A stretch of DNA of 44,522 bases from Patescibacteria group bacterium (GTDB lineage Bacteria > Patescibacteriota > Minisyncoccia > UBA6257 > 2-01-FULL-56-20), in the NCBI GenBank assembly GCA_038057515.1, contig JBBUDB010000017.1, positions 1 through 44,522 on the forward strand, in the 5' to 3' direction. Below are positions 3,932 to 29,707 of the stretch, piece after piece. Both the position numbers and the translations under genes were made by a program. Within the stretch, counting starts at the first letter, position 1. Each line of letters starts with the position of its first letter. The notes below the pieces were generated by a model. It made no database searches, was not told where the DNA came from, and was given only the letters and a program-made list of their open reading frames with translations.

Positions 3932-4933
3932 ATGAAAAAAGCCCTTATCTTCGGCATCACCGGCCAGGACGGGAGCTATTTGGCCGAACTCCTCTCCGGG
4001 AAAGAATACGAGGTGCATGGTGTCGTCCGTCGCGTCTCGACAATGAGCCGCCAGCGCCTCGACCGGCTTCATCCCGACCCGCACAGCCCGGCGCTCAAGG
4101 TTACGCTACACTACGGCGATGTGGGGGATGTATCAAGCATTCGGAGCATTATCCAGAAGTCGGCGCCGGACGAGGTGTACAACCTCGCCGCCCAGTCGCA
4201 CGTCCGCATTTCTTTCGACATCCCCGAGTATACGGCGGATGTCACCGGGCTCGGCACGTTGCGGATACTCGAAGCTTTGAAGGACTACGAAACCGCGACG
4301 GGCAAACGAGTTAAATTCTATCAGGCCTCGTCTTCGGAGATGTTCGGCTCGTCGCCGCCGCCCCAGAGCGAGACGACGCCCTTCCATCCCCGAAGCCCAT
4401 ACGCCATCGCTAAGGTGTTCGCCTATTGGACCACGGTGAACTATCGCGAGGCCTACGGCCTACACGCGGTGAACGGCATTCTTTTCAATCACGAATCACC
4501 CCGGCGCGGCGAGAACTTCGTGACCCGCAAGATCACCCGCGGCATCGCCGAGATCAAAACCGGTCTGGCGAAGAAAATATATCTTGGGAATCTCGAGGCG
4601 AAACGCGACTGGGGCTACGCCCCCGAATACGTGGAGGTTATGTGGCGGATGTTGCAAGAGGACGAGCCCGACGATTACGTCATCGGCACGGGCGAGAGCC
4701 ACTCGGTAGGGGATTTTTTGGAAACCGCCTTTCGCCACGCCGGACTGGGGGACTGGCAGTCGTACGTCGAGATCGATCCGCGTTACTATCGTCCGGCCGA
4801 GGTGGATAATCTAGTTGCCGATACCAGAAAGGCGAAAACAAAACTCGGCTGGGAGGCAAAGGTAAAGTTCGACGAGCTTGCGAAAATCATGGTCGAGGCC
4901 GATCTCGTAAGGTTCGGTATCGAGAAGAACTAA
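3932..4933 (+). CDS. gmd: GDP-mannose 4,6-dehydratase
   Basis: [21 protein letters not shown] Rossmann start, [17 protein letters not shown] (YxxxK), [17 protein letters not shown]. These are classic Gmd blocks. Confidence 0.9.
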
Positions 4934-7307: not shown

Positions 7308-7334
7308 CCACGAGGTGGCGTATCGTCAAAAAAA

Positions 7335-7370
7335 GCGCGCGTTTCTCATGTCGGGGAGCGCGCGTCTTTT
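7335..7370 (+). terminator. possible intrinsic terminator after the IMPase gene
   Basis: A-tract, self-complementary GCGCGCG at 7335-7341 and 7358-7364, then TCTTTTGCTCTT. Confidence 0.35.
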
Positions 7371-7383
7371 GCTCTTCGGCGTC

Positions 7384-7413
7384 TTTACGACGTTTTCTTG
7401 CTCGTGCTATGAT
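7384..7413 (+). promoter_or_regulatory. candidate extended -10 promoter, leaderless geometry
   Basis: TTTACG, 18 nt, TGcTATGAT (-10 at 7408-7413). Only 9 nt separate the -10 box from the ATG at 7423. Confidence 0.4.
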
Positions 7414-7422
7414 GGGTGGATT

Positions 7423-8436
7423 ATGAGTGGTTTCGAACCAGCCCGGGGGCAGAAAACAGCCCTCGTTTGCGGCGGCGGCGGGTTTATCGGCAGTCATCTC
7501 GCCCGGCGCCTGAAGGACGAGGGATTCTGGGTGCGCGTCGTGGATCTCAAGCGTCCCGAATTCAGCGAGACGGCCGCGGATGATTTTGTGGTCGGCGATC
7601 TGCGTCATGAGGTGACCTGGGAAAAAGTTCTCGACCGCCCGTTTGACGAGGTGTATCAACTCGCGGCCGATATGGGCGGCGCGGGCTATATATTCACTGG
7701 CGAGCACGACGCCGAGGTGATGCACAACTCGGGGAGCATTAATCTGCACATGGCCCATTACGGCGTCTCCCGTAGCGTCGGCAAGATATTCTATTCTTCA
7801 TCGGCTTGCATTTATCCGGCCTACAACCAGGAAGATCCGGATAATCCGAAGTGTCACGAGGACTCCGCCTATCCGGCCGCGCCCGACAGCGAGTATGGCT
7901 GGGAAAAGCTTTTTAGCGAGCGGATGTATCTCTCGTTCCACCGGAACAACAACCTCGATGTGCGCATTGCTCGTTTCCATAATATTTTCGGACCTGAAGG
8001 CGCCTGGCGCGGCGGACGCGATAAGGCGCCGGCGGCCGTCTGCCGTAAAGTGGCGGAGGCAAAAGATGGCGGCGAGATAGAAATATGGGGAGACGGCAAG
8101 CAGACCCGTTCGTTTCTTTACATTGACGAATGCCTGGAGGGGATACGACGACTGATGGATGCAAAGGACTTCCGCGGCCCGGTCAATATCGGTTCCGAGG
8201 AGATGGTGACCATCAACCAGCTCGCCGGGATGGCCATGGAGATCGCCGGCAAAAAACTCAACATTAACCATGTGCCGGGGCCCCTAGGAGTGCGCGGCCG
8301 GAACTCCGACAACCACCTTATTAAAAGGGAACTCGGCTGGGCGCCGAGCCGACCCCTCCGTGAGGGGCTTGCGAAGACCTACGCCTGGATTGAGGCTCAG
8401 GCTCAACGCCTCAAAGAAACGGAGGCAAAAAAATGA
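7423..8436 (+). CDS. GDP-mannose 3,5-epimerase-like SDR
   Basis: GGGGFIGSH Rossmann motif. The block RFHNIFGPEGAWRGGRDKAPAAVCRK closely matches my recollection of plant GME (RFHNIYGP.G.WKGGREKAPAAFCRK). YGWEK gives YxxxK. The listed ORF starts at 7315 but the N-terminal extension looks non-coding. Confidence 0.7.
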   Translation: MSGFEPARGQKTALVCGGGGFIGSHLARRLKDEGFWVRVVDLKRPEFSETAADDFVVGDLRHEVTWEKVLDRPFDEVYQLAADMGGAGYIFTGEHDAEVMHNSGSINLHMAHYGVSRSVGKIFYSSSACIYPAYNQEDPDNPKCHEDSAYPAAPDSEYGWEKLFSERMYLSFHRNNNLDVRIARFHNIFGPEGAWRGGRDKAPAAVCRKVAEAKDGGEIEIWGDGKQTRSFLYIDECLEGIRRLMDAKDFRGPVNIGSEEMVTINQLAGMAMEIAGKKLNINHVPGPLGVRGRNSDNHLIKRELGWAPSRPLREGLAKTYAWIEAQAQRLKETEAKK

Positions 8437-9578
8437 AGATCGTCTTCACTACGCCGGAGTACCACCAATACGATCCTCGGAAGGGGAAAACGAACGAGTA
8501 CAATAATTTTTATCTCGGGCTCAAGGCCGCCGGCCACGAAGTGATTTTCGCACCCTTCGACCGCATTCTTGAAGGGGCAAGCGAGGCGCGGCGGGGCTTT
8601 GCGGCTAAGATGTTCGATCGCAACATCACGCTCGGTCTGTTCGACCGAGGGGCAGCCGCCGGTCGGCGCCGGTTTAACGAGGAGCTTCTGGAAACCGTAC
8701 AGCGAGAAAAACCAGATCTCTTTTTCGCTTTTCTGTACACCGACGAGCTCGAACCCGCGACGCTCCGAGAGATCAAAAAGCTGACGACGAGCGTTGCCTG
8801 GTTCTCCGACGACTCGTGGCGTTTCTGGAATTACGCGGCCGAGTGGGCGCCGCGTTTCACGTGGGCGATCACAACGTACCCTTGGCGGGTAAAGGATTAC
8901 GCGCGTGTCGGTCAGCCGAACGTTGTCGTTTCTCAATGGGGCGTGAACGAGAACTTCTATCACCCTCTCCACGACCCCATTCCCGGAGGCGTGCCGGAGG
9001 TTTCGTTTGTCGGTTCGTGGAGCGCGCCGCGCGGCCGGATCGTGGCATCGTTGCTCCGCGCCGGCATTCCGGTTTCGGTCTACGGGGCCGGCTGGCAGTC
9101 GGCCGGCTGGGCAAGCCGGCGGGTGACCGACGAAGAGATGCTTTCGATCTTTACGCAAAGCAAGATCAATCTAGCGCTAAATCCGGCTCCGGGGCTTTGG
9201 AACATCACCTCTCTCGGTCAGCTGCTCGGCCGCCGGTCGGTGGATCGTTTCGTGCCGGACCTCCGACTGATCAGGAACTGGAGCGCCTTTCTCGACCATC
9301 GCATCCCGCAGATCAAAGCCCGTCACTTCGAGGTCGCGGCCTGCGGCGGTTTCACGATCGCCGGCTGGGCCGAAGGGATTGAGCAGTACTACGCGCCCGA
9401 CAAGGAAATGGTGTTTTACAAGAGTATGCCGGAGCTTATCGAAAAGGTGCGTTGGTATCTTGACCATCCCGCCGAACGCGAGGCAATCGCTCGAGCCGGC
9501 TACGAGCGGACGGTCCGAGATCACACCTACCGTCGGCGGTTCGAGGATATTTTCCGGGCGATTGGTTTTACCAAATAG
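8433..9578 (+). CDS. CgeB-like glycosyltransferase (DUF3880 / Glyco_trans_1_2 type)
   Basis: C-terminal KARHFEVAACGGF...YYAPDKEMVFY...HTYRRRFEDI is typical of the CgeB family. ATGA overlap with the upstream epimerase. Confidence 0.6.
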   Translation: MKIVFTTPEYHQYDPRKGKTNEYNNFYLGLKAAGHEVIFAPFDRILEGASEARRGFAAKMFDRNITLGLFDRGAAAGRRRFNEELLETVQREKPDLFFAFLYTDELEPATLREIKKLTTSVAWFSDDSWRFWNYAAEWAPRFTWAITTYPWRVKDYARVGQPNVVVSQWGVNENFYHPLHDPIPGGVPEVSFVGSWSAPRGRIVASLLRAGIPVSVYGAGWQSAGWASRRVTDEEMLSIFTQSKINLALNPAPGLWNITSLGQLLGRRSVDRFVPDLRLIRNWSAFLDHRIPQIKARHFEVAACGGFTIAGWAEGIEQYYAPDKEMVFYKSMPELIEKVRWYLDHPAEREAIARAGYERTVRDHTYRRRFEDIFRAIGFTK

Positions 9579-9608
9579 CCGGCGCCCGAACTGCCCGATA
9601 CTTGCAAC

Positions 9609-10073
9609 ATGTCGAAGGAACCCCGAAGATTAAGCGACGAAGAATACCGGTTCACGTACAGTCGGGCGCCCCGGATATGCGTCGACCTAATCGTTCACAA
9701 AGAAAACAGTTTTCTTTTAACGAAAAGAGCGATAGAACCGTTCAAGGGGCTTTGGCACTTTCCCGGCGGCCGGATCTTTTATAAAGAGTCCGTTGACGAG
9801 GCGATAGCGAGAATTTCGGAAGCGGAAGTCGGCCTGACGGTGAAGAATAAAGAGCTCCTAGGCTATCTTGAGGTTTTGGAGGACGGCAAATACGTCCACA
9901 GCGTGAGCATGGTCTTTCTCGTTCAGTTCGACTCCGGAGAGATACGCGGCAGTCTGCAGGCGCAGGAAGTAAAGATCTTTGAAGAAATTCCCGAAGACAC
10001 GCACCCCGTTCATGAAGAATTCTTGCGTACTCACTGGAGTTACATTTCGAGCAGGTTGAAGAATCCGGCCTAG
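9609..10073 (+). CDS. Nudix hydrolase, GDP-mannose mannosyl hydrolase-like (Gmm/NudD type)
   Basis: Degenerate Nudix box GGRIFYKESVDEAIARISEAEVGL resembles E. coli Gmm GGRVQKDETLEAAFERLTMAELGL (R-[LI]-[ST]-x-A-E-x-G-L). It sits directly before fcl. Confidence 0.55.
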   Translation: MSKEPRRLSDEEYRFTYSRAPRICVDLIVHKENSFLLTKRAIEPFKGLWHFPGGRIFYKESVDEAIARISEAEVGLTVKNKELLGYLEVLEDGKYVHSVSMVFLVQFDSGEIRGSLQAQEVKIFEEIPEDTHPVHEEFLRTHWSYISSRLKNPA

Positions 10074-10079
10074 AAAACC

Positions 10080-11048
10080 ATGGCGATCAATCTTAAGGGG
10101 AAAAAAATCCTCGTCACCGGCGGCCACGGGTTTTTGGGCGGCCACGTGCTTCATCGTCTCCGGGCGATTGGCGTGCCAGGAGAAAATATTTTTACGCCCT
10201 CCGCGACGGAGCTTGATTTGCGGCGACTGGAACATTGTGAGCAAGCCGTTGTCGGGCAGCACATCGTGATTCATCTTGCCGCCAAGGTGGGCGGCATCGG
10301 GTTCAATCTGGAAAAGCCGGGTGAGATTTTCTACGACAATCTTTTGATGGGCGCCCAGTTGATGGAATCGGCTCGCCGCGCCGGCGTCGAAAAATTCGTG
10401 GCTATAGCCACCATCTGCGCGTACCCAAAACTTGCCCCGGTGCCGTTTCGCGAAGAATATCTCTGGGACGGCTACCCCGACGAAATAAACGCGCCTTACG
10501 GTCTCGCGAAGAAAATGCTTCTCGTCCAAGGACAGGCCTATCGCCGCCAGTACGGCATGAACGCCGTGACGCTTTTCCCGGTAAACCTCTATGGTCCGGG
10601 TGATAACTTCGACCCGGGCTCAAGCCATGTGATTCCGGCGCTCATTAAGAAGGTCGCCGACGCGAAGCGGGAGGGTAGTGATTTTATCGAGGTCTGGGGA
10701 ACCGGCAAGGCGACTCGTGAGTTCCTTTACGCCGCCGATGCGGCCGAGGGTATCGTCTTGGCGACCGAGCGTTATGATAAATCCGATCCCGTAAATCTCG
10801 GCTCCGGGAAGGAGGTTCCCATCAAGGAAGCCATCGAAACGGTTTGCCGCCTCATGGACTTTCGCGGCGAGATTCGTTGGGACCAGACGAAACCCGACGG
10901 CCAGCCCCGTCGAATGCTTGACGTCTCGCGCGCCGAGCGCGAGTTTGGTTTCCGGGCGAAGACCGATTTCGAGACGGGCCTTAAGGAAACGACCGTCTGG
11001 TATCTTGGGACGTACCCACAAGGATACGAAGGAGGCAAGAGGGCATGA
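10080..11048 (+). CDS. fcl: GDP-L-fucose synthase (GDP-4-keto-6-deoxymannose 3,5-epimerase/4-reductase)
   Basis: [15 protein letters not shown] (YxxxK), [37 protein letters not shown]. These are canonical Fcl blocks. Confidence 0.85.
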
Positions 11049-12130
11049 TACTGAAAGATACAAAGATCATTATCGTCGGGGCGAGCTGGTACGGCCACTG
11101 GGCGAAGGACTTCTGGGAAGGCCTTACAGAGATCGGTGCCGATGCCGAGATCATCTACACAAATCTCGTCGGCGGTGCCCAGCCGACGGGCGGGACGCCA
11201 TCGCTACGAACGCAAATATTCGCTCTCGCGAAGCGGTTCCTGCGGCGCTTCGCGCCGACCGTTGTGGATTTCGTGAAACGGCGAAGCCAGAGCGGCGCCG
11301 AGAGAACGCTCCTGGAACGTGCTGATAACGTTATTGCTTCGGGGAAAAAGGTGCTTGTGATTTTTGTCTGGACGCCGCCCTCGGAAACAGCTCTTCGGGA
11401 ACTCAAAAAGCGCCCAGTGGCGCTTGCCTTGTGGCAGGGCGAACCGACGGCTCGCGATTTGGGCTGGGAGCCGCTCTTCGATTATTTTGATCATCTTTTC
11501 TGCGTGGATGACGATTGGATGGCGCGGTTTGCCGAAGAACGGAACCGCCGGCGAGCCATCCTCCTGCCGCTCGCGACCAATCCCCGCATTCATCGTCCCG
11601 TGCCGCCGAGTAATGATCCGAAATACCAGGCGGATGTCGCTTTCGTGGGTTTCTACCGGCCGCAGAGAGCCGACATGCTTTCGGCCATCAAACACTTAGA
11701 CCTCAAGATTTATGGCTATGATTGGGAAGAAGGATTTCACGACTTTCCGTGGATGAGGGAAAAATATTTCGGCACGCTTGCCGATGAAGAAGTGAATCTT
11801 ATTTTCAACACGGCCAAGATCTCGATTGGCACACTTGGTATTACCCAGAATCCCGGGCCGACCACCACCCAGCGCACTTTTGATATTGCTCTTGCCGGTG
11901 GTTTCCAGATTTCCGGCTGGGCCGCCCTTACCCCGAAGCTCTTTGGCGATGCCGTCGTGCTTTTTCGGACGAAAGAAGAACTTGCCAATCTCGTGAAGCA
12001 TTACCTCGCGCGTCCGGACGAGCGCCGGGATATGGCGGAGCGAGCTCGCCTTATCGCGACGGAGGGCCATACCTACGCTCACCGCGCCCGCGTTATACTC
12101 AAAGCGTGCGGGATCTCTGTTAATGATTGA
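11045..12130 (+). CDS. CgeB-like glycosyltransferase, paralogue of 8433-9578
   Basis: Same C-terminal architecture ([12 protein letters not shown]...[10 protein letters not shown]). ATGA overlap with fcl. Confidence 0.55.
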
Positions 12131-12171
12131 AAAGCAAATCGAGAATTATATCGCCCGCGCCACTAAGTTTC

Positions 12172-12750
12172 ATGATCAATCGGATTAATCGACAAATCGA
12201 GGATTACATCGCCTTGGCCGGCGTATTTCGGGATCCGGCGTTTGCCGAGCGGATGATCGCCGCCATCCGCCTCATCGAGGCGGCGTTTCGGCAGAAAGGC
12301 AAGGTGCTCGTTGCCGGCAATGGCGGCTCGGCCGCTGATGCCCAGCACTTCGCGGCCGAGTTCGTGTGCAAGTTTAAGCGTGAGCGGCCGGGATACGCGG
12401 CCATCGCGCTCACGACCAACACCTCCGTTTTGACCGCCTGGAGCAATGATTACGATTTCAAAGATGTTTTTGCTCGCGAGGTCGAGGCGCTCGGCCGTGC
12501 CGGTGACGTATTTGTCGGTATTTCTACTTCCGGGAACTCGGAGAATGTAATCCGAGCCATCACGAAGGCGAAAGGGATTGGCCTCACGACCGTCGCCATC
12601 CTCGGCCATGATGGCGGACGCACGAAAGGCGTGGCCGATATCGAGATCGTCGTGCCGTCGAATAATACACCGCGTATTCAAGAGGCGCAGATGTTCATCT
12701 TGCACGCAATCGCCGAGGAGGTTGAGGCCCTGCTCGCGGGACAAAATTAG
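12172..12750 (+). CDS. gmhA: sedoheptulose-7-phosphate isomerase (SIS domain)
   Basis: VAGNGGSAADAQHFAAEF, ISTSGNSENV, QEAQMFILH. The listed ORF begins at a TTG (12127) overlapping the upstream stop, so the ATG at 12172 is preferred. Confidence 0.8.
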   Translation: MINRINRQIEDYIALAGVFRDPAFAERMIAAIRLIEAAFRQKGKVLVAGNGGSAADAQHFAAEFVCKFKRERPGYAAIALTTNTSVLTAWSNDYDFKDVFAREVEALGRAGDVFVGISTSGNSENVIRAITKAKGIGLTTVAILGHDGGRTKGVADIEIVVPSNNTPRIQEAQMFILHAIAEEVEALLAGQN

Positions 12751-13822: not shown

Positions 13823-14338
13823 ATGGAATTCGTCAAAACTAAGCTTTCAGGCGTTGTTCTTGTAAAACCGGACGTTCAGGAGGATTTTCGAGGCGGCTAC
13901 GTCGAGACGTACAACAAGAAGGCCTATCAGGGGAATGGCATCGCGCCGGAATTCGTCCAGGACGACATGTCGTTCTCGACGAAGCACGTTTTGCGCGGGA
14001 TTCATGCCGATCAAGAGATCGCGAAACTTGTGTCCTGTGCCTACGGCCGATTTTACTGCGTCATCGTGAACTGCGATGAATCTTCGCCGGACTTCGGCAA
14101 ATGGGAATCGTTCAATTTGTCAGATCGCAATCGTTGGCAGGTCTATGCGCCGCCGAAGCACGGCGTGGCCCACCTTGTCATGAGCGACTACACGATCTTC
14201 CACTACAAACAATCGGGATATTACAATCCGTCGAATCAGAAGAGCTATCGCTTCGACGACCCGCGCTTCAAAATCTGGTGGCCGGTTAAGGCCCCGATCC
14301 TTTCCCGTCGCGACGAAGAGGGAAAATATGTCGACTAG
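13823..14338 (+). CDS. RmlC-like cupin sugar-nucleotide 3,5-epimerase
   Basis: FRGGYVETY, VLRGIHAD, KLVSCAYGRFYCVIV, GVAHLVMSD, FHYKQSGYY. This is the dTDP-4-dehydrorhamnose 3,5-epimerase fold signature. Confidence 0.8.
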   Translation: MEFVKTKLSGVVLVKPDVQEDFRGGYVETYNKKAYQGNGIAPEFVQDDMSFSTKHVLRGIHADQEIAKLVSCAYGRFYCVIVNCDESSPDFGKWESFNLSDRNRWQVYAPPKHGVAHLVMSDYTIFHYKQSGYYNPSNQKSYRFDDPRFKIWWPVKAPILSRRDEEGKYVD

Positions 14339-15281
14339 TCCCAAAAAAATCCTCGTGACCGGCGGTGCCGGCTACATCGGCTCGGTTCTCGTGCCGGAGC
14401 TTTTGCGTCTCGGCCACGAAGTGACGGTTATCGACAGCTTTCTCTACGGCCAGACGCCGCTTCTCGATGTCGTTCACTATCCAACACTCACCGTTGTTCG
14501 GGGCGATGCCCGAAACGAAGAATTGATTAAAAAACATCTCGAGGGCAAAGATGTCGTCATCCCGCTGGCGTGTCTTGTGGGCGCGCCGCTCTGCGACAAG
14601 GACCCGATCGCGGCCGAGACCACGAATCTTGAGGCGATCAAAATGATCGTGCGGTTGCGCAACAAGGCGACCCAGCAGATTATCTTTCCGAACACGAATA
14701 GCGGCTACGGCCGGATGGCTGAAGGCGTGGCCTATTGCGATGAAAATAGCCCGCTTGAACCCGTGTCGCTCTACGGCAAGCTAAAAGTAGAAGCGGAAAA
14801 ACTATTGCTTGCCGACGGCAATGCCATCACCTTTCGGCTCGCCACGGTTTTTGGGGCGAGCCCTCGGATGCGTCTCGATCTTCTCGTGAACGACTTCGTG
14901 TACCGGGCCGTGAACGACCGCGTGGCGGTGCTTTTCGAAGCGCACTTCAAGCGGAACTACATTCACATTCGCGACGTGGCGGCCGCGTTTATCCACGCGA
15001 TGGACAACTTCGAAACGATGAAGAACCAGCCCTACAACGTCGGTCTTTCGGAGGCGAATCTCTCGAAACTCGAGCTTTGCGAGGAGATCAAGCGCGTTTT
15101 GCCCAAATTCGTTTTTATTGAATCGAAGATCGGTGAGGATCCGGATAAGCGTAATTACATTATCTCTAATGCAAAGATCGAAGCGACGGGGTATAAGCCA
15201 AAGGTATCGCTCCCGGTGGGCATTCGCGAGCTCGTGAAGACATACGAGATCGTGAAACGGAACCACTTCGCGAATATCTAA
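14328..15281 (+). CDS. extended SDR, NAD-dependent sugar-nucleotide dehydrogenase/epimerase
   Basis: ILVTGGAGYIGS, YGKLK (YxxxK). Overlaps the RmlC-like gene by 11 nt. Confidence 0.7.
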   Translation: MSTSPKKILVTGGAGYIGSVLVPELLRLGHEVTVIDSFLYGQTPLLDVVHYPTLTVVRGDARNEELIKKHLEGKDVVIPLACLVGAPLCDKDPIAAETTNLEAIKMIVRLRNKATQQIIFPNTNSGYGRMAEGVAYCDENSPLEPVSLYGKLKVEAEKLLLADGNAITFRLATVFGASPRMRLDLLVNDFVYRAVNDRVAVLFEAHFKRNYIHIRDVAAAFIHAMDNFETMKNQPYNVGLSEANLSKLELCEEIKRVLPKFVFIESKIGEDPDKRNYIISNAKIEATGYKPKVSLPVGIRELVKTYEIVKRNHFANI

Positions 15282-15303: not shown

Positions 15304-15330
15304 GGACGGCCAAAAGAGGCCGTTTTATTT
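15304..15330 (+). terminator. rho-independent terminator
   Basis: ACGGCC-AAAAGA-GGCCGT followed by TTTATTTG. Confidence 0.6.
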
Positions 15331-15366: not shown

Positions 15367-16329
15367 ATGGCGGAGATAAAACGCAAGAGGATCCTCGTGA
15401 CTGGCGGTAATGCCGTTGCGGGTGATGGCCTGAAGAGCGTCGTTGCGGCGGGCGAATTTTCTGGCCGCGAGTTCGTCTTTCCGGGCTCAAAGGAGTTGAA
15501 TCTTTTGGACGCCGCGGCGACGAGAAAATACGTTGCCGACTGGAAGCCCGATGCTATCGTGCATTTTGCAGCGATCTCTGGCGGCATTCAGCTTACCCTC
15601 GATCATCCGGCGAGTGTGATGCGCGATAATATTCTCATGAACCTCAACGTCGTCGAAGCGGCGCGTCTTTCGGGTGTGACGAAAATAATCATGACGCTTT
15701 CCGCGGCGATCTATCCCATGAATGCCCCGGTGCCGATGAAAGAAGAATCTCTCCACGAGGGCTATCCGCACGAGACGAACTACAGTTATGCGTTCGCAAA
15801 GCGGCTCATTGACCCAATGGCGAAGGCCTATCACAAAGAATATGGTATGGATATCGTTGGTATCATCCCGGGGGCGATCATCGGCCCGAAGAGCAGTTTC
15901 GATCCAAAAAGCTCCACGGCCATCCCGGCGATAATTCGCCGCTTTTACGAGAACCGAGAGGGGGATGGTCCGCTTGTTGTGTGGGGTGATGGATCACCCT
16001 TGCGTCAATTCACTTCCGGTGATGATATTGGTCGGGTGGCCATGTGGTGCGTCGACAATTATAACGAGCCGCAGATGCTGAATGTAAGCACGATGGAAGA
16101 AACCTCCATTAAGGATGCGGCATATATGATCGCCGAGTTTCTGGGAATCGACGCAAAACGCCTAACATTCGACACTTCAAAACCCGCCGGAACGCCTCGT
16201 CAGGCGATCGATAACACGAAGTTCATGAGCTTATCGCATTTCACATATATGCCAGCGCGAGAAACGATAAAAAGAACCGTTGAATATTTTGCGGCGAACT
16301 ATCCCGATCCGAAAAAACTCCGACTCTAA
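15367..16329 (+). CDS. Fcl-like SDR (second GDP-fucose-synthase paralogue), probable NDP-4-keto-sugar reductase
   Basis: LSAAIYP, YSYAFAKR (YxxxK), SSTAIPAIIRRF, VVWGDGSPLRQF. These blocks are collinear with Fcl. Confidence 0.65.
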   Translation: MAEIKRKRILVTGGNAVAGDGLKSVVAAGEFSGREFVFPGSKELNLLDAAATRKYVADWKPDAIVHFAAISGGIQLTLDHPASVMRDNILMNLNVVEAARLSGVTKIIMTLSAAIYPMNAPVPMKEESLHEGYPHETNYSYAFAKRLIDPMAKAYHKEYGMDIVGIIPGAIIGPKSSFDPKSSTAIPAIIRRFYENREGDGPLVVWGDGSPLRQFTSGDDIGRVAMWCVDNYNEPQMLNVSTMEETSIKDAAYMIAEFLGIDAKRLTFDTSKPAGTPRQAIDNTKFMSLSHFTYMPARETIKRTVEYFAANYPDPKKLRL

Positions 16330-16331
16330 AG

Positions 16332-17303
16332 ATGAACTATCGACCACTCGGCAGAACGGGTATCACTGTTTCGGAAGTTGGTTTTGGCACGTGGGGCATC
16401 GGCGGAGAAACGCCCGGCGCCACGTCCTATGGGCCGACCGACGATACCGAATCAAAACGCGCCCTCGAAACCGCTTTTGAGAACGGCATTACGTTCTACG
16501 ACACATCGGATCTTTACGGTGCTGGCCACGCCGAGGAACTCTTGGGAGAGGTCTTCTCGAATCGCCGCGAGAAGATCGTCATCGCGAGCAAGGTTGGCTA
16601 CGTCCAGCATGGGGGACCGCACGATTTTCGACCGATGTGGATCCGCGCGCGGGTCGAGGCAAGTTTGCGCCGCCTCAAGACCGACTACCTCGACGTTTAC
16701 CAACTCCATAGTCCGCCGATGGATCAGCTTCGCGCGACACCTGGCGCGATTGAAGAGATGCACGCATTAAAGAGAGAAGGTAAGATTCGTGCCATCGGTA
16801 TCTCCGTAAAGAGTCCGAAAGATATTCAGGCGGCAATCGAAGAGTTTGGCGCCGAGACCATTCAGGTTAATTTCAATCTCATTGATCAGCGGGCGCTTGA
16901 TGACGGTTGGTTCGCGTTCGCCGGTAACCGGGGCGTTGGCATCATCGCGCGCACACCACTCGGCTTCGGATTCTTGAGCGGCGCCATCACCGATCTTCAT
17001 TTTCCGCCAAGCGATCATCGTTCGAACTGGCCCGAGGGCCAGCTTCGTCGCTGGGCCGAAGCACCGAAGCTTTTCGCGTTTTTAGGCGAGGGGCGCGAGG
17101 CATCGCCCACCCAGATCGCTTTGAAATTCTGCACGAGCTTTTCCGAGGTCGGCGTCGTGATCCCCGGCATCCTGCACCCGTCGGAGGCGGTAGAAAATGC
17201 CGCCGCGAGCGAAATCCAGAGCTTCACGGCCGAAGAGATTGCCCGAGCCCGCGAGGTCTACAAGGACAACGAATTTTTCGACAAATCGCTGAAATCGAAG
17301 TAA
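16332..17303 (+). CDS. aldo/keto reductase
   Basis: LGRTGITVSEVGFGTWGIGG, FYDTSDLYGAGHAEELLG, IASKVG, YQLHSP. These are AKR signatures. Confidence 0.8.
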   Translation: MNYRPLGRTGITVSEVGFGTWGIGGETPGATSYGPTDDTESKRALETAFENGITFYDTSDLYGAGHAEELLGEVFSNRREKIVIASKVGYVQHGGPHDFRPMWIRARVEASLRRLKTDYLDVYQLHSPPMDQLRATPGAIEEMHALKREGKIRAIGISVKSPKDIQAAIEEFGAETIQVNFNLIDQRALDDGWFAFAGNRGVGIIARTPLGFGFLSGAITDLHFPPSDHRSNWPEGQLRRWAEAPKLFAFLGEGREASPTQIALKFCTSFSEVGVVIPGILHPSEAVENAAASEIQSFTAEEIARAREVYKDNEFFDKSLKSK

Positions 17304-17316
17304 ACTGGGCTCCACG

Positions 17317-18141
17317 ATGATAGAAGCTGCTCTTGGGGAGGATTTATTTGGCCGGGCGAAGCACATCCGCCGGGACATCGTCGAGATGATCTACCGGGCG
17401 AAAAGCTCTCATATCGGTTGCGCGCTTTCTGCGGCCGATATTCTTACCGCGCTCTACTTCGGCGGGGTTTTGCGCATTGATCCGAAAAGCCCAAAAGCGC
17501 CGGGGCGGGACCGGCTCATCTTAAGCAAGGGCCATGCGGTGACGGCTGTGTACGCCGCTCTCGCCGAGCGCGGTTTTTTCCCAAAAGAAAAACTTCTTGA
17601 ATATGGGACCGATGGCACGACGCTCGCGAGCCATATCGTCCTTGATGTTCTACCGGGAACGGAAACCTCAAGCGGTTCCGGGGGTCACGGCCTACCGATG
17701 GGTGTCGGCATGGCGCTTGCCGCTCGGGCGGATAAGAACGGCGCCCGGATATTCGTGCTTTCGGGTGACGGCGAGCTCGAAGAAGGATCGGCGTGGGAGG
17801 CGATGCTTTTTGCCGGACATCATAAGCTTTCGAATTTGAAACTTATCGTTGATCGTAACGATCTTCAAGACGGCGTGGATGGTCTTCGGGTGAGCGATGT
17901 TCTTGATCTGAATCCTTTAGACGAAAAGTTCCGAGCCTTCGGCTGGGAAGTTGATATCGTTGACGGCCATGATCCGGCCGCCCTCATCCCAGCGCTCAAA
18001 AAGGAGACGGCTCGACCACACGCCATAATCGCGAAGACAGTAAAGGGAAAGGGGGTATCTTTCATGGAAAATCGGGGCGAGTGGCATGGGAAGTGCCCGA
18101 ATGCCGATGAGTACGCAATCGCGATAAAAGAACTATCTTAA
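17317..18141 (+). CDS. transketolase, N-terminal (ThDP pyrophosphate-binding) subunit
   Basis: GHIGCALSAADIL, LSKGHAVTAVYA, GSGGHGLPMGVGMA, LSGDGELEEGSAWEA. Confidence 0.85.
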   Translation: MIEAALGEDLFGRAKHIRRDIVEMIYRAKSSHIGCALSAADILTALYFGGVLRIDPKSPKAPGRDRLILSKGHAVTAVYAALAERGFFPKEKLLEYGTDGTTLASHIVLDVLPGTETSSGSGGHGLPMGVGMALAARADKNGARIFVLSGDGELEEGSAWEAMLFAGHHKLSNLKLIVDRNDLQDGVDGLRVSDVLDLNPLDEKFRAFGWEVDIVDGHDPAALIPALKKETARPHAIIAKTVKGKGVSFMENRGEWHGKCPNADEYAIAIKELS

Positions 18142-18149
18142 TTATCATC

Positions 18150-19064
18150 ATGCGCTTCTCCGTCATAGAAACTATCTATAAAGCCGGCCTCAAGGATCCG
18201 AATCTTTGCTTTATCACCGGTGATCTTGGGCACATGAATACGGCGGAGTTTCGCCGGGATTTCGCCGGCCGTTTTTGGAACGCTGGCATGTCCGAGCAGA
18301 ACATCATTGGCATGGCGGCGGGTTTAGCTCTTTCGGGCAAACAAGCGGTGGCCTATTCGATCGTGCCATTCATCACCCTCCGTTGTTACGAACAGATCAA
18401 GGTTGATGTTTGCGACCACAATGCGAACGTGATCATCGTCGGTGTCGGCGGGGGATTTGCCTACGGTTCGGCTGGGCCGACCCACTATTCAATTGAAGAG
18501 GTTGCGGCCTTGCGGGTACTGCCGAATATGAAGATAGTTTGTCCGGTTAATCCGACCGAAACCAGGGTTTTGACCGAGCAAATCTTGCGGGCCGGTGGAC
18601 CGGCCTACATTCGCATCGGTCGTGGTAAGGAACAAGATTTTGAGCTTGGATATGTTCCCGTGCTTGGCAAAGCCGGTGTTCTCCGGGCGGGAACGGATAT
18701 GACGATCATTGCAAGCGGCACGATCGGGACCGAAGCGCTTCGTGTCGCCGACATGTTGCAAGAAAAGGGATTTTCCGTCGAGGTGGCGAATATGCATACG
18801 ATAAAACCCATCGATGCGGATTTCATCGCCGATCGGGCGAAATCCCGGCGGGCCATCTTTACGCTCGAAGAACACAGCGTTCTCGGCGGTTTAGGCGGAG
18901 CCGTTGCCGAGGTGCTCGCAGAGCTTCCCGCGCGGCCGCTCTTCAAACGTTTCGGTGTTGCCGATATCTGGCCAGAGGTTGTCGGTTCCCAGCAATATCT
19001 TCGCGATCACACTGGTATTTCGGCTGAAAAGGTCGCGCTGGCAATCAAACGCATTCTTTCGTAA
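18150..19064 (+). CDS. transketolase, C-terminal (pyrimidine-binding) subunit
   Basis: FWNAGMSEQN, GMAAGLALSGK, GPTHYSIEEVAALRVLPNM, EEHSVLGGLG. Confidence 0.85.
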   Translation: MRFSVIETIYKAGLKDPNLCFITGDLGHMNTAEFRRDFAGRFWNAGMSEQNIIGMAAGLALSGKQAVAYSIVPFITLRCYEQIKVDVCDHNANVIIVGVGGGFAYGSAGPTHYSIEEVAALRVLPNMKIVCPVNPTETRVLTEQILRAGGPAYIRIGRGKEQDFELGYVPVLGKAGVLRAGTDMTIIASGTIGTEALRVADMLQEKGFSVEVANMHTIKPIDADFIADRAKSRRAIFTLEEHSVLGGLGGAVAEVLAELPARPLFKRFGVADIWPEVVGSQQYLRDHTGISAEKVALAIKRILS

Positions 19065-19068
19065 CCAG

Positions 19069-20070
19069 ATGATCATCACCCGAACTCCATTCCGCGTGTC
19101 GTTCTTTGGCGGAGGCACTGATTATCCCGTATGGTACGAGGAGAACGGCGGGGCCGTGCTATCGACGACGATAGACAAGTATTGCTATATTTTCGCTCGA
19201 GAGTTTCCGCCGTTCTTTCCTCAAAAGCTCCGCATCGTTTGGTCCAAGATCGAGTTGGCCGATAACCCCGACGGTATCGAGCACCCTTCTGTTCGTGAGG
19301 TTTTGAAACATCTTGGGCTTCGTGAGGGTATCGAGATTCATCATAACGGCGACTTGCCGGCACGTTCGGGTCTCGGCTCAAGCTCGGCGTTCACGGTGGG
19401 ACTCTTGCACGCGCTTCACGCCTTGAAGGGTGAAATGATGTCGAAGCACGATCTCGCCCACGAAGCGATCCACGTGGAACAAAATCTCATTGGCGAGAAC
19501 GTTGGTTCTCAAGACCAAGTGGCGGCGGCCTTCGGCGGATTCAACAAGATCACGTTTGCCTCAGGCAAGCGCATCGCTGTTGAGCCGATCGTGTTGCCGA
19601 ACGGCCAGCTCGATGAACTGCAAGATCACCTAGTACTTTTCTTTACGGGACTTTCGCGAAACGCTTCCGAGGTGGCCGCCGAGCAGATGCGAAATACGCC
19701 GAAGAAAAACGCAGAACTTAAAAGGATGCATGAGATGGTCGATGAGGCGATTGCCATCCTTAAAAAGGGTACGATGGCGATCGGTGATTTCGGCAGACTG
19801 CTTCATGAGACTTGGCAGTTAAAACGCAGCCTCTCGTCCTCAATCAGCACGTCGGCAATCGACGAGATCTACGACCGAGCTCGGAAGAACGGGGCGGTTG
19901 GCGGGAAACTCTTGGGCGCGGGGAGCGGTGGCTTCATGCTGCTTTTCGTGCCGCCAAAAGACCAGGAGCGGCTAAAGACGGCCCTCAAGGGTCTTTTGTA
20001 CGTTCCTTTCCGATTCGAAAACGCCGGTACGCAGATTATCTATTACGGCCCGAAGACAATTGCTCGTTAG
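19069..20070 (+). CDS. GHMP-family sugar kinase, HddA-like (D-glycero-D-manno-heptose 7-phosphate kinase type)
   Basis: TPFRVSFFGGGTDYP, DLPARSGLGSSSAF (GHMP motif II), GKLLGAGSGGF. The listed ORF from 18904 overlaps the transketolase, so the ATG at 19069 is preferred. Confidence 0.65.
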   Translation: MIITRTPFRVSFFGGGTDYPVWYEENGGAVLSTTIDKYCYIFAREFPPFFPQKLRIVWSKIELADNPDGIEHPSVREVLKHLGLREGIEIHHNGDLPARSGLGSSSAFTVGLLHALHALKGEMMSKHDLAHEAIHVEQNLIGENVGSQDQVAAAFGGFNKITFASGKRIAVEPIVLPNGQLDELQDHLVLFFTGLSRNASEVAAEQMRNTPKKNAELKRMHEMVDEAIAILKKGTMAIGDFGRLLHETWQLKRSLSSSISTSAIDEIYDRARKNGAVGGKLLGAGSGGFMLLFVPPKDQERLKTALKGLLYVPFRFENAGTQIIYYGPKTIAR

Positions 20071-22898: not shown

Positions 22899-24237
22899 GG
22901 CGGCGGCCGCGTTTTTTGCCGTGGCGATTTTCTTGCTCACTTGGCGGGTCGGCTGGCCATGGGCGGCACTGAAATTCTCGGAGTTTTTCTTCGCTCTCGC
23001 CCTGGGATCGCTTGGCTTAACCCTTATGATATCCGCGCCAGCGCGCGCCCGTCTCTGGCGCATCCTGCTCGTCCTGCGCGTTGAGGGGCGGTGGCTCGGC
23101 TTGCTTCTTCTTGCCGCAGTCATTGGGCATGCCGCGAGCATTTTTTTGTCTCTCGACTGGCAGGCCTACGCCGGCGAGATCTGGCTGGAATATAGTCGGT
23201 TGCTCTTATCGGTTTTGCTGTTCTTTGCGGTTATTTACCTTTGCGTTGCGTTTCGGAATTTAAACGCGTATCTTCTCGGCATCGTGATCGTTTCGCCGCT
23301 TACTCTGTGGGCGTCTCTCTTCCCGGCTTGGTATCGGGTGTTTTTCCTCGCCGTTGACGAACGTTTGCGCGGGCCAGGCAGTGATCCGAATTACCTGGGT
23401 AGCTGGCTTGGGTTGGGCGTAATCACCGCCTTCGCCGTTTTTCTTTGGGCGAGAGGCGGGCGGCGCTGGCTGGGTTTATCGGGAATGGTCGGCCTGTTTC
23501 CGCTTCTGCTCTGGACCTCTTCCCGGGGCGCAATCTTGGCTGTCGGTTTGGGGTTTGCCGCCACAGGCTTGAAATATGTGTTGGGCGGCTTCACGCTCCG
23601 GCGCGCGGGTTCGGTCGCGACGGCTCTCACGGCGCTCCTCGTCGGATTTTGGTTATCGTTTGCCGCGGCGCCTCCCCCGGTTCGTGCCGCCATAACTGAT
23701 CGTCTTGTGGTGCCTTTTGTCGGCAGACAAAGCGCGATAGTGATGTTTTTGAACCCGGGCCTCCGCGCCGCTTCGGGCAGTTTAAGCGGCGTGGAGGCGC
23801 CGGTTTTTGAATTAGGCGCGGATCGCCGTAAGCTGTTCTTCGGTGGCGGTCGCCTTTTGCTCGGACATCCCTTTGGCTTCGGCCCGGCTTATTATCGCTG
23901 GCAGCCGGTTGCTTATGCCGGAGACGGCGCCAAGCTCGGCCCTCACAATTTATTTCTAGAAGCGGGACTGACCGGGGGCTATTTGGGCCTCATCGCCCTT
24001 CTTGGTTTTCTTTGGAGCATTGCTCGCCGGTTGGCCGGGTTTTCCTCCGGCGAAAATTGGGTTGGCGGCGCCTTAATCGGGTGTTTTGTGGCGCTTCTCG
24101 CCGTTTCGTTTTCTCTCGACACGCTTACGTTACGGTGGCTGTGGCTTATCATGGGTCTCGTCGTCGCGCGTTCTTTGGATAGTGATTTAACTATCGCGTC
24201 GAGCGAAGGGTTGAGAGACAATGGCGATGAATCGTAA
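22867..24237 (+). CDS. Wzy_C-family O-antigen polymerase/ligase-like membrane protein
   Basis: About 10 or more hydrophobic segments. WTSSRGAILAVGLGF loop, HNLFLEAGLTGG. The ATG at 22867 overlaps the upstream gene by 32 nt. Confidence 0.65.
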   Translation: MRNFLIVWLPRAAAAFFAVAIFLLTWRVGWPWAALKFSEFFFALALGSLGLTLMISAPARARLWRILLVLRVEGRWLGLLLLAAVIGHAASIFLSLDWQAYAGEIWLEYSRLLLSVLLFFAVIYLCVAFRNLNAYLLGIVIVSPLTLWASLFPAWYRVFFLAVDERLRGPGSDPNYLGSWLGLGVITAFAVFLWARGGRRWLGLSGMVGLFPLLLWTSSRGAILAVGLGFAATGLKYVLGGFTLRRAGSVATALTALLVGFWLSFAAAPPPVRAAITDRLVVPFVGRQSAIVMFLNPGLRAASGSLSGVEAPVFELGADRRKLFFGGGRLLLGHPFGFGPAYYRWQPVAYAGDGAKLGPHNLFLEAGLTGGYLGLIALLGFLWSIARRLAGFSSGENWVGGALIGCFVALLAVSFSLDTLTLRWLWLIMGLVVARSLDSDLTIASSEGLRDNGDES

Positions 24238-24814
24238 GTTAAAAAAGCGCGCTGTTTTTCTCGATCGTGACGGTACCCTGGTGCATCTGAAGCTTGGGGA
24301 GTACACAACCAGTCCTAAGCAATTACGTCTTTTGCCCGGCGCCGCCACGGCAGTCCGGGCCTTAAATCGGATAGGATATTCGGTGGTTATCATTACAAAT
24401 CAGGGCGTTATTGCGAAGGGAAAAACGACGCACAAGGAAGTTGACTATTTGCACGCAATACTTATCGATCGATTAGGAAAGAAAGGAGCGCGCGTGGACG
24501 CCGTTTATTACTGCCCGCACCACCCCGAGGGGAAGATCCCGAAATATGCCATTCGTTGCCGCTGTCGGAAGCCGGAGATCGGCATGATCACCAAGGCCAT
24601 GAAAGATATGAGTATTGATATGAAAAAAAGTTTCTTGATCGGCGACACAACGGGCGATATTCTGACCGGCCATCGCGCGGGCCTTACTACCATCTTGGTC
24701 AAAACCGGCTATGGCGGACGGGATAAGAAGCACGACGTGAAACCGGATTTCGTTGTTCGCAATCTCACCGCCGCCGTGCGCTATATCAAGAAACATGCCC
24801 AACCCCAAGGTTAG
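24221..24814 (+). CDS. gmhB: D-glycero-D-manno-heptose 1,7-bisphosphate phosphatase (HAD, GmhB type)
   Basis: FLDRDGTL, TNQGVIAKG, zinc motif CPHHP...CRCRKP, GDTTGDI. Confidence 0.8.
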   Translation: MAMNRKLKKRAVFLDRDGTLVHLKLGEYTTSPKQLRLLPGAATAVRALNRIGYSVVIITNQGVIAKGKTTHKEVDYLHAILIDRLGKKGARVDAVYYCPHHPEGKIPKYAIRCRCRKPEIGMITKAMKDMSIDMKKSFLIGDTTGDILTGHRAGLTTILVKTGYGGRDKKHDVKPDFVVRNLTAAVRYIKKHAQPQG

Positions 24815-27118: not shown

Positions 27119-27188
27119 GTTCAACTAGCCTTTGTTAAATAGTTCTTGATTAAAACTCCGGTTTTTCAGCACGTAATGATCTACGGGG

Positions 27189-27216
27189 TTTACTCTTGGC
27201 CACATTGGCTTATAAT
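27189..27216 (+). promoter_or_regulatory. candidate promoter, leaderless geometry
   Basis: TTTACT (27189-27194), 16 nt, TATAAT (27211-27216), then 10 nt to the ATG at 27227. Confidence 0.4.
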
Positions 27217-27226
27217 CTCAAGCATT

Positions 27227-27928
27227 ATGAAGGCGGTACTTCTCGTCGGTGGGCAAGGGACCCGGCTTCGGCCGGTGACCTACGAAATCCCAAAGCCGCT
27301 TATCACGGTGGGGAAAAAACCGATCGTGAACCATGCCATCGAATTTCTTGACCGGCACGGTATCGATGAGGTCGGCCTGCTCGCCGCTCGCGGCCACGCG
27401 GACGACTTCCGGAGGTGGCGGAAGGGCTGGGCGGATGAGTTGCCCGCGGTGAAGATTAACATGTTCTATGAGGAGTCGCCACGCGGCACCTTCGGCGGCT
27501 TTGAGGTGCTCCGCGAGTGGCTCGGTAACGAAACATTTGTCGTTTCGAATGGCGATGATCTCAAAGATTTCGATCTCACGGCGATGATCGTTGCGCATCG
27601 CAAAAGCGGCGCCGTGGCGACCGTGGCTCTGATGCGCGTGCCCGACCCGGAGAATTTCGGCGTACCCCTTATGGAGGGGAATCGCATCGTTCGTTTTTTG
27701 GAAAAACCGTCCAAGCCGCCGTCGGATTTCGTGAACGGCGGTCTCTACGTGATGGAGCCGGCGGTTTTTGACTACGTTGATTTTAAGAAGCCCACCGTGA
27801 TGATCGAGCGCGACCTTTTCCCGGCGCTTGCCGAGGGGGGTTTGCTCTACGGTTTTCGCGGCGAAGGCGCCCGGTGTTTCGATTGCGGCACGCTTGAGCG
27901 TTGGGAACGGGCGATGAACGAGTGGTAA
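27227..27928 (+). CDS. sugar-1-phosphate nucleotidyltransferase (HddC/ManC-like)
   Basis: MKAVLLVGGQGTRLRPVTYEIPKPL signature, FLEKP, GLYV. Confidence 0.75.
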   Translation: MKAVLLVGGQGTRLRPVTYEIPKPLITVGKKPIVNHAIEFLDRHGIDEVGLLAARGHADDFRRWRKGWADELPAVKINMFYEESPRGTFGGFEVLREWLGNETFVVSNGDDLKDFDLTAMIVAHRKSGAVATVALMRVPDPENFGVPLMEGNRIVRFLEKPSKPPSDFVNGGLYVMEPAVFDYVDFKKPTVMIERDLFPALAEGGLLYGFRGEGARCFDCGTLERWERAMNEW

Positions 27929-28966: not shown

Positions 28967-28995
28967 TTGCGTGATTTCCGCGCGGGGACGATAAT
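28967..28995 (+). promoter_or_regulatory. candidate promoter for the second nucleotidyltransferase
   Basis: TTGCGT (28967-28972), 17 nt, GATAAT (28990-28995), then 13 nt to the ATG at 29009. Confidence 0.4.
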
Positions 28996-29008
28996 AAATC
29001 AATTACGC

Positions 29009-29707
29009 ATGAAGGCCATCATCCTTGCCGGCGGTCGGGGCACGCGCCTCCGACCGGTCACTTATGAGATTCCGAAGCCGCTCGTGCCGGTCAAAAAGCG
29101 GCCGATCGTTAATCACCTCATCGAGTTTTTCCGCCGCCACGGCGTTGAGGATATCGGTATTCTGGCGAGTCGGGACCACGAAGAAGATTTTCGGCGCTGG
29201 CAGAAAGTTTGGGATGACGAAGTGGTCAAGGGGATAACGATGTTCCACGAAGAAACCCCGCGCGGCACTTTCGGCGGGTTGGAGCCGCTCCGCGAGTGGC
29301 TGGGCGGCGAGCGTTTTATTCTCTCGAATGGCGATGAGCTCAAAGATTTCGACCTCGCGGCGATGGAAAGATTCCACGGCGCCCAGGGAGGTACGGGCAC
29401 GATCGCGCTGGTTGAGGTGCCGAATCCATCGGAATATGGCGTGCCCGTTATGGATGGCCACCACATCAAACAATTTTTGGAAAAACCAAAAGAGCCACCG
29501 TCCAATTTCATCTCCTCGGGGCTTTATATGCTCGAACCAGAGGTCTTTAAACACGCTGACTTCAGCCAACCGATCGTCATGATCGAGCACGACATCTTTC
29601 CAAAACTAGCCGCCGAGGGTAAGCTCTATGGATTCAAGCCGCCGAATGCTCGTTGGTATGATTGCGGCACACTCGAACGCTGGGAGCGGGCGATCAAAGA
29701 GTGGTAA
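29009..29707 (+). CDS. sugar-1-phosphate nucleotidyltransferase, paralogue of 27227-27928
   Basis: MKAIILAGGRGTRLRPVTYEIPKPL. Collinear with the first copy along the whole length, roughly 60% identical by eye. Confidence 0.75.
   Translation: MKAIILAGGRGTRLRPVTYEIPKPLVPVKKRPIVNHLIEFFRRHGVEDIGILASRDHEEDFRRWQKVWDDEVVKGITMFHEETPRGTFGGLEPLREWLGGERFILSNGDELKDFDLAAMERFHGAQGGTGTIALVEVPNPSEYGVPVMDGHHIKQFLEKPKEPPSNFISSGLYMLEPEVFKHADFSQPIVMIEHDIFPKLAAEGKLYGFKPPNARWYDCGTLERWERAIKEW

Follow-up and report, generated by a model that had tools for sequence, protein, structure and literature searches.

A split transketolase in a Patescibacteria surface-glycan locus is a candidate for two-carbon transfer onto nucleotide-activated keto sugars

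The window analyzed in this study, an entire 44.5-kb contig from a Patescibacteria group bacterium (source genome, 644 kb, 86% complete), encodes a transketolase (TK) as two adjacent genes, TK-N and TK-C (positions 17317 to 19064), within a surface-glycan locus. Judged by its sequence and genomic setting, this pair is a specialized paralogue and not the pentose-phosphate transketolase of the cell. We propose, with a probability of roughly 0.55, that TK-N and TK-C are the two subunits of an alpha2beta2 thiamine diphosphate (ThDP) enzyme that has been re-targeted to ketol transfer onto a GDP-keto-sugar, the product of which would then be reduced by the neighboring aldo-keto reductase (AKR). The original prediction for this DNA had left two readings side by side, (a) a dedicated supply of sedoheptulose-7-P for a heptose branch and (b) a two-carbon transfer to an NDP-keto-sugar. 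Gene neighborhoods, domain fusions, and the pattern of active site residues now favor the second and disfavor the first.

Results

The N- and C-terminal transketolase halves are, as predicted, separate and intact genes: the open reading frames (ORFs) are as claimed, their domains are matched, and both products are full length compared with their relatives. They match a solved split transketolase (TK-N, 244 bits to 6YAK; TK-C, 191 bits to 6YAJ). The ThDP transketolase fold is further supported by matches to PF00456, PF02779, and PF02780, all above their cut-offs, and by the presence of the D155 and N185 equivalents of the ThDP/Mg GDG...N motif (residue positions are given throughout in Escherichia coli TktA numbering, with the sequence taken from NC_000913). 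A DXS or E1 identity was rejected on the basis of Pfam and NCBIfam scores and the conserved H100 and H473. TK-C scored 164 bits with transketolase models versus 139 bits with DXS models, decarboxylase-type ThDP families were absent among the Pfam matches, and E1_dh reached 19 bits, which is under its cut-off.

TK-N keeps H26, H66, H100, D155, N185, and H261, and TK-C keeps R358 (residue 2 of the subunit), E411, H473, and R520. The catalytic residues E411, H26, H261, H473, and H100 are all conserved in the pair, as well as in no fewer than 73 of the 78 members of the clade to which it belongs (described below). A reading of the pair as a pseudo-enzyme was rejected, as every catalytic residue is conserved. 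Other positions in TK-C have changed: S385 is replaced by M, H461 by G, and D469 by A. Five housekeeping split transketolases from the candidate phyla radiation (CPR), on the other hand, match E. coli at all mapped positions, including these three. In characterized transketolases, R358, S385, H461, and R520 hold the substrate phosphate, and D469 holds the 2-hydroxyl of the acceptor. At the four phosphate-binding positions, the window carries R, M, G, and R versus R, S, H, and R in the housekeeping copies and in E. coli. The change at position 461 is nearly uniform across the clade, 70 of the 78 members having G and 7 having A. Since the catalytic set is kept while substrate-binding residues are lost, the glycan pair looks catalytically competent but re-targeted. 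S385, D469, and R520 are reported to be mutated in a transketolase variant evolved by a stepwise shift of acceptor from phosphorylated to non-phosphorylated aldehydes (PMC5073344). The C subunit of the window pair starts at the equivalent of R358 (MR...), and M1 and R2 are invariant in a 19-sequence alignment of the family.

Position 469 is more variable. Among the 78 TK-C sequences, the residue follows the type of cluster, with D in cassettes that carry radical-SAM and adh_short genes, A or C in loci with an AKR or a Cj1427-like protein, Y in loci with a short-chain dehydrogenase/reductase (SDR) and DegT, and L or M in the remainder. This variation with cluster type and sub-clade suggests that position 469 reads a variable acceptor.

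Among the grounds on which the original prediction would have reduced the pair to housekeeping supply was that it be the only transketolase of its genome, and this is not the case. A second split pair, of the housekeeping type, is encoded on contig C13 in a pentose-phosphate operon, RpiB-Rpe-TktN-TktC-PfkB. Identity between the two pairs is only 44% for the N half and 37% for the C half. The full order of genes there (locus L003:2074-12584, minus strand) is GAPDH, RpiB, Rpe, TktN, a 210-amino-acid ORF without a Pfam match, TktC, and PfkB, and a class II fructose-bisphosphate aldolase lies further downstream. The original prediction had also drawn attention to the completeness of the non-oxidative pentose phosphate pathway; a transaldolase was not found in the 86%-complete genome. 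The C13 gene set without transaldolase would fit a sedoheptulose-bisphosphate bypass that replaces this enzyme. Likewise, four of five related CPR genomes carry one housekeeping-type TK-N (194 to 205 bits to Pfam) and at least one lower-scoring, glycan-type copy. Judged by operon context and by the presence of this second pair, the glycan pair is not the pentose-phosphate enzyme of the genome.

A protein search returned hundreds of relatives of about 300 amino acids with 50 to 70% identity, and a genome scan yielded 80 loci in CPR lineages, Omnitrophota, Planctomycetota, Nitrospira, Thermodesulfobacteriota, SAR11, Chloroflexota, and archaea. In an IQ-TREE phylogeny of TK-C, a single branch with a support of 95 in the Shimodaira-Hasegawa-like approximate likelihood ratio test (SH-aLRT) parts 79 glycan-locus sequences from 6 housekeeping sequences, and the window TK-C falls on the glycan side. 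The TK-N tree contains a clade (SH-aLRT, 97) of 78 glycan-locus sequences, the window included, and 16 fusion proteins. Hence, the phylogeny that had been proposed as a check on the pair separates it from housekeeping transketolases for both subunits. Some glycan loci contain two different split transketolase pairs that belong to different sub-clades, either in tandem, as in Geobacteraceae/Desulfuromonadaceae (L029, L031, and L036, at about 7300-10900), or a few kilobases apart, as in Brennerbacteria/Yanofskybacteria (L011, 3534-5400 and 9210-10900; L018, 9150-10900 and 12733-14600).

The fusion proteins came from a search in which TK-N relatives of greater length were collected and then placed in the TK-N tree. 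Within the clade, TK-N is fused to a nucleotide-sugar SDR, a TylC3-type sugar C-methyltransferase, FkbM, TylF, other methyltransferases, Bac_transf, GNAT, or PhyH. Sugar O-methyltransferases are among these partners, as is a priming transferase. Fusions to transaldolase (TAL), PfkB, phosphoglucomutase (PGM), or HAD fall outside the clade, as do full-length transketolases. These fusion partners tie the clade to nucleotide-sugar tailoring and not to sugar-phosphate metabolism. Of the longer proteins, those most similar to the window TK-N (51 to 56% identity) are FkbM-methyltransferase::TK-N fusions about 600 amino acids in length, one of which comes from a metagenome-assembled genome of Myxococcota.

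Members of the clade also occur in cultured bacteria, among them Desulfobacter latus AcRS2. A plasmid of Paenibacillus cellulosilyticus KACC 14175 (NZ_CP054609.1) carries an operon with rfbF, rfbG (CDP-glucose 4,6-dehydratase), a C-methyltransferase, an SDR::TK-N fusion, TK-C, a TylF methyltransferase, and a glycosyltransferase. The fusion protein (635 amino acids; L089:8097-10927 together with TK-C) is annotated merely as "SDR family oxidoreductase," and its TK-C partner has G at position 461. Plasmid pDCAR1 of Solidesulfovibrio carbinolicus DSM 3852 has two TK-C genes (L090:1-835 and 10001-10939), with pseB, pseC, methyltransferases, and a radical SAM gene as neighbors. The gene table of pDCAR1 lists no TK-N before the second TK-C, and an unannotated ORF of 368 amino acids is located there, at 8902-10008.

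The gene neighborhoods of the clade point in the same direction as the fusions. TK-N adjoins TK-C in 74 of 78 clade loci, and an extended nucleotide-sugar SDR lies no more than about three genes away from TK-C in 52 of 78. An AKR, an adh_short reductase, or a DegT aminotransferase is found near 45 of the 78 TK-C genes, and B12-radical-SAM enzymes occur in the locus for 26 of them. Genes of the heptose pathway are less frequent, with an HddA-like kinase in only 20 and GmhA in only 6 of the 78 loci. The window fits this general picture, as its Cj1427-like SDR, Fcl-like protein, and AKR are all within three genes of the pair. In its sub-clade of 12 members, an AKR is present in 10, a Cj1427-like SDR in 6, and HddA in 5. 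A conserved Fcl-like/AKR gene pair accompanies the TK pair in eight loci, one of which belongs to a Methanocellaceae archaeon, and six of the eight also hold a Cj1427-like SDR. The gene order around the heptose kinase is the same in loci L005 and L006.

According to profile searches of the window proteins, the locus is of the Wzx/Wzy glycan type and encodes glycosyltransferases in addition to Gmd, two Fcl-like proteins, a GDP-mannose-epimerase-like SDR, and an RmlC-like cupin. Its heptose set consists of GmhA, an HddA-like kinase, GmhB, and two nucleotidyltransferases (Table 1). Because this set is found together with a Cj1427-like SDR, the locus appears equipped for GDP-D-glycero-D-manno-heptose and its oxidation to the 4-keto form. 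GmhA scores slightly below the canonical family-model cut-off of 209 bits. The Cj1427-like SDR matches PDB 6VO6, which, by the name of the deposited molecule, is the GDP-heptose C4-dehydrogenase Cj1427 of Campylobacter jejuni. The co-oxidant of Cj1427 is alpha-ketoglutarate, and CPR cells usually have no tricarboxylic acid cycle. Orthologues of this SDR (50 to 77% identity) occur in 19 of the 80 TK loci and those of the cupin (45 to 64% identity) in 14 of 80. The Cj1427-like SDR (58 to 77% identity) and the HddA-like kinase (55 to 64%) are unusually conserved from CPR to Nitrospira and Desulfobacterales and often lie beside the TK pair (loci L052, L074, L078, L079, L041, and L065).

The tight packing that had been described for this part of the locus was confirmed, with spacers of 2 nt between the Fcl-like gene and the AKR gene, 13 nt between AKR and TK-N, 8 nt between TK-N and TK-C, and 4 nt between TK-C and the kinase. 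From this spacing, the AKR/TK/kinase run is presumably co-transcribed. The AKR itself was found where it had been placed, and the gene that follows TK-C does encode a kinase that resembles heptose kinases, with about 150 bits to the solved 3K85, 4USK, and 4N3O and a probable start at the ATG at 19069 (MIITRTPFRVSFFGG). Folding also upholds the terminator proposed upstream of this run. The hairpin, which is missing from the output of a simple terminator scan, sits in an 85-nt gap, with sugar genes on its upstream side and the Fcl-like/AKR/TK/kinase run on the other.

Table 1. Features of the glycan locus discussed in the text
Feature	Position	Strand	Evidence
GDP-mannose 4,6-dehydratase (Gmd), alternative source of a GDP-4-keto acceptor	3932..4933	+	PF16363, 448 bits
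GmhA-like sedoheptulose-7-P isomerase	12127..12750	+	TIGR00441, 204 bits; SIS_2 domain
RmlC-like cupin, probable C3/C5 epimerase of a 4-keto nucleotide sugar	13823..14338	+	PF00908, 159 bits
Cj1427-like extended SDR, probable GDP-heptose C4-dehydrogenase	14328..15281	+	373 bits, E 1e-110, PDB 6VO6/6VO8
Intrinsic-terminator-like hairpin	15304..15330	+	8-bp GC-rich stem, then UUUUAUUU U-tract; -21.7 kcal/mol, z = -4.5
Fcl-like epimerase/reductase	15367..16329	+	About 200 bits to GDP-L-fucose synthases
AKR, proposed reducer of the TK-introduced keto group	16332..17303	+	PF00248, 202 bits
TK-N, transketolase-like N-terminal (PP-domain) subunit, 274 amino acids	17317..18141	+	PF00456 Transketolase_N, 122 bits
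TK-C, transketolase-like C-terminal (Pyr + TKC) subunit, 304 amino acids	18150..19064	+	Transket_pyr, 94.5 bits; Transketolase_C, 86.5 bits
HddA-like GHMP kinase (heptose-7-P 1-kinase type)	19069..20070	+	GHMP domains
GmhB-like heptose bisphosphate phosphatase	24221..24814	+	NF006506, 155 bits
Sugar-1-P nucleotidyltransferase, HddC-like candidate	27146..27928	+	PF00483; with paralogue 28967-29707, 125 and 136 bits

Discussion

In the mechanism that we favor, the pair would form dihydroxyethyl-ThDP (activated glycolaldehyde) from a ketol donor, for which a ketose phosphate and hydroxypyruvate are candidates, and would pass the two-carbon unit to a GDP-keto-sugar made in the same locus instead of to an aldose phosphate. 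The likeliest acceptor would be GDP-D-glycero-4-keto-heptose, the predicted product of the Cj1427-like SDR, with the product of Gmd as an alternative. The resulting sugar would carry a hydroxyacetyl-type two-carbon addition, the new keto group of which the adjacent AKR may reduce, perhaps along with the Fcl-like reductase. Glycosyltransferases, Wzx, and Wzy encoded in the locus would then make use of the sugar. With GDP-D-glycero-4-keto-heptose as the acceptor, hydroxyacetyl transfer followed by AKR reduction would place a nine-carbon, C-branched heptose in a CPR surface glycan, and the clade as a whole might serve bacteria and archaea of many phyla as a general, hitherto undescribed means of branching or extending nucleotide sugars by two carbons. 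This more specific picture is put forward tentatively, and we would sooner expect it to need revision than to hold in full.

Several points weigh against the proposed transfer onto a nucleotide sugar. The retention of R358 and R520 (R or K) leaves room for a phosphorylated substrate, although it would equally suit a donor with a phosphate or the diphosphate of GDP. The TK pair of the window abuts the heptose kinase, as do the pairs of the two syntenic relatives nearest to it, and this arrangement fits a role at the level of sugar phosphates. Both the Fcl-like protein and the AKR travel with the TK, and this is left unexplained by a simple C4-branching scheme. Given that attack at C4 leaves one new keto group, yet two reductases are present, the site of attack may differ from C4. 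Furthermore, we know of no glycan structure in which the predicted sugar occurs. As for the data themselves, the trees come from quick searches in which SH-aLRT is the sole measure of support, and the neighborhoods derive from crude ORF calling and BLAST clustering on metagenome-assembled contigs.

Possibly, the pair does act at the level of nucleotide sugars but by other chemistry, such as chain extension at a sugar aldehyde, transfer from a donor that is not glycolyl (pyruvate, as for DXS), or the cleaving off of a ketol side chain. We regard this as unlikely. In its favor are the two reductases that travel with the pair and the C half, which scores nearly as well with DXS models as with transketolase models. 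However, H100 and H473, which hold the hydroxymethyl group of the donor in transketolases, are conserved, and this favors a glycolaldehyde unit. In addition, an enzyme producing a sugar aldehyde was not identified in the locus.

It is improbable, in our estimate, that the pair makes another ketose phosphate, e.g., octulose-8-P from hexose-6-P, which GmhA, HddA, GmhB, and a nucleotidyltransferase would then convert to a higher-carbon GDP-sugar. The GDP-octose route to lincomycin provides the logic for such a pathway, with a transketolase replacing the transaldolase, and the kept R358 and R520, the adjacent kinase, and a remodeled pocket that could take a longer acceptor are all compatible with it. 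In contrast, the loss of D469, which binds the 2-hydroxyl of the acceptor, does not fit; GmhA is barely under the canonical cut-off, and the kinase resembles solved heptose kinases. Moreover, most clade members have neither kinase nor isomerase nearby, and the fusion partners in the clade work on nucleotide sugars, not on sugar phosphates. Very unlikely, finally, is the duplication of an ordinary transketolase into the operon to feed sedoheptulose-7-P to GmhA, HddA, GmhB, and the nucleotidyltransferase: while the pair adjoins the HddA-like kinase in a locus with GmhA and GmhB, shares its gene order with L005 and L006, and comes from an 86%-complete genome in which no transaldolase was found, this reading is disfavored because the C13 housekeeping enzyme already makes sedoheptulose-7-P, because S385, H461, and D469, present in every housekeeping copy, are gone from the glycan pair, because no more than about a quarter of the clade members have heptose genes with them, and because the clade is present in large genomes and fused to nucleotide-sugar enzymes.

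If ketol transfer onto a nucleotide sugar is indeed the function of the pair, a very common and uncharacterized clade would gain a role in transketolase-catalyzed C-C bond formation on activated sugars. Branched or higher-carbon envelope sugars would then be predicted in uncultured bacteria, including CPR, Omnitrophota, Planctomycetota, SAR11, and Nitrospira, and biocatalysis would gain a natural transketolase that takes ketones or bulky non-phosphorylated acceptors. For annotation, a "transketolase" in a glycan locus should not be counted as pentose-phosphate capacity, a point that is relevant for metabolic reconstructions from the tiny genomes of CPR bacteria.

Comparison with known systems

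The chemistry that we propose, which the original prediction had held to be new for this enzyme type, is not wholly so. Split-gene transketolases of unproven function have been put forward as the source of the hydroxyacetyl branch in miharamycin and amipurimycin, and 13 split transketolases of Streptomyces have been predicted in silico, none of which has been characterized in vitro (PMC12247030). Compared by description and not by sequence, these systems share with the window a two-subunit transketolase fold in a sugar-tailoring cluster, an oxidoreductase proposed to make the keto sugar beforehand, and a proposed hydroxyacetyl transfer to that keto sugar. They differ in their setting, being nucleoside-antibiotic clusters of Streptomyces, whereas the window is a CPR Wzx/Wzy surface-glycan locus with a GDP-heptose pathway. 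Since such a transfer has so far only been proposed, and since YerE and the E1-like enzymes are members of different ThDP superfamilies, hydroxyacetyl transfer by a transketolase can be considered anticipated but undemonstrated.

The split transketolase of Carboxydothermus hydrogenoformans, ChTK (6YAK/6YAJ; PMC7661550), and the C13 pair have the same split architecture and the same ThDP-binding and catalytic residues as the glycan pair. The latter, however, has M385, G461, and A469, belongs to another clade, and is encoded in a glycan locus instead of a pentose-phosphate operon.

Branching of sugars by ThDP enzymes is known from other superfamilies. AviB1 and AviB2 are E1 alpha/beta-like sugar-branching enzymes. 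As we propose for the window, YerE (yersiniose A) and the E1 alpha/beta-like KbDH (kibdelomycin; PMC12247030) add a two-carbon unit to an NDP-4-keto sugar, after which the carbonyl of the branch is reduced. YerE is of the decarboxylase type and KbDH of the keto-acid dehydrogenase E1 type, whereas the glycan pair is in neither superfamily. With pyruvate as their substrate, YerE and the E1-like enzymes introduce an acetyl or hydroxyethyl group, while the branch made by a transketolase would be hydroxyacetyl.

In C. jejuni, the C4-reductase that acts in the modification of GDP-heptose is Cj1428. The pathway as reviewed, with the chemistry of Cj1427 described, comprises Cj1424 (GmhA), Cj1425 (HddA), Cj1427, Cj1430, and a C4-reductase (PMC10680097). 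The window shares with it GmhA, an HddA-like kinase, a Cj1427-like C4-dehydrogenase, a cupin epimerase, and an Fcl-like reductase. The TK and the AKR are elements added in the window: the survey of the C. jejuni heptose enzymes (PMC10680097) makes no mention of a transketolase, and the enzyme classes named in its abstract include no AKR. A literature search for a transketolase with heptose, O-antigen, or capsule clusters returned nothing relevant. Likewise, no paper was found that deals with both the C10 sugar bradyrhizose and a transketolase, and Busset et al. 2016 (PMC4743980) is silent on such an enzyme. What is new here, compared with all of these systems, is the surface-glycan/GDP-heptose setting of a split transketolase, the breadth of its clade across phyla, the residue signature, and the evidence from fusions.

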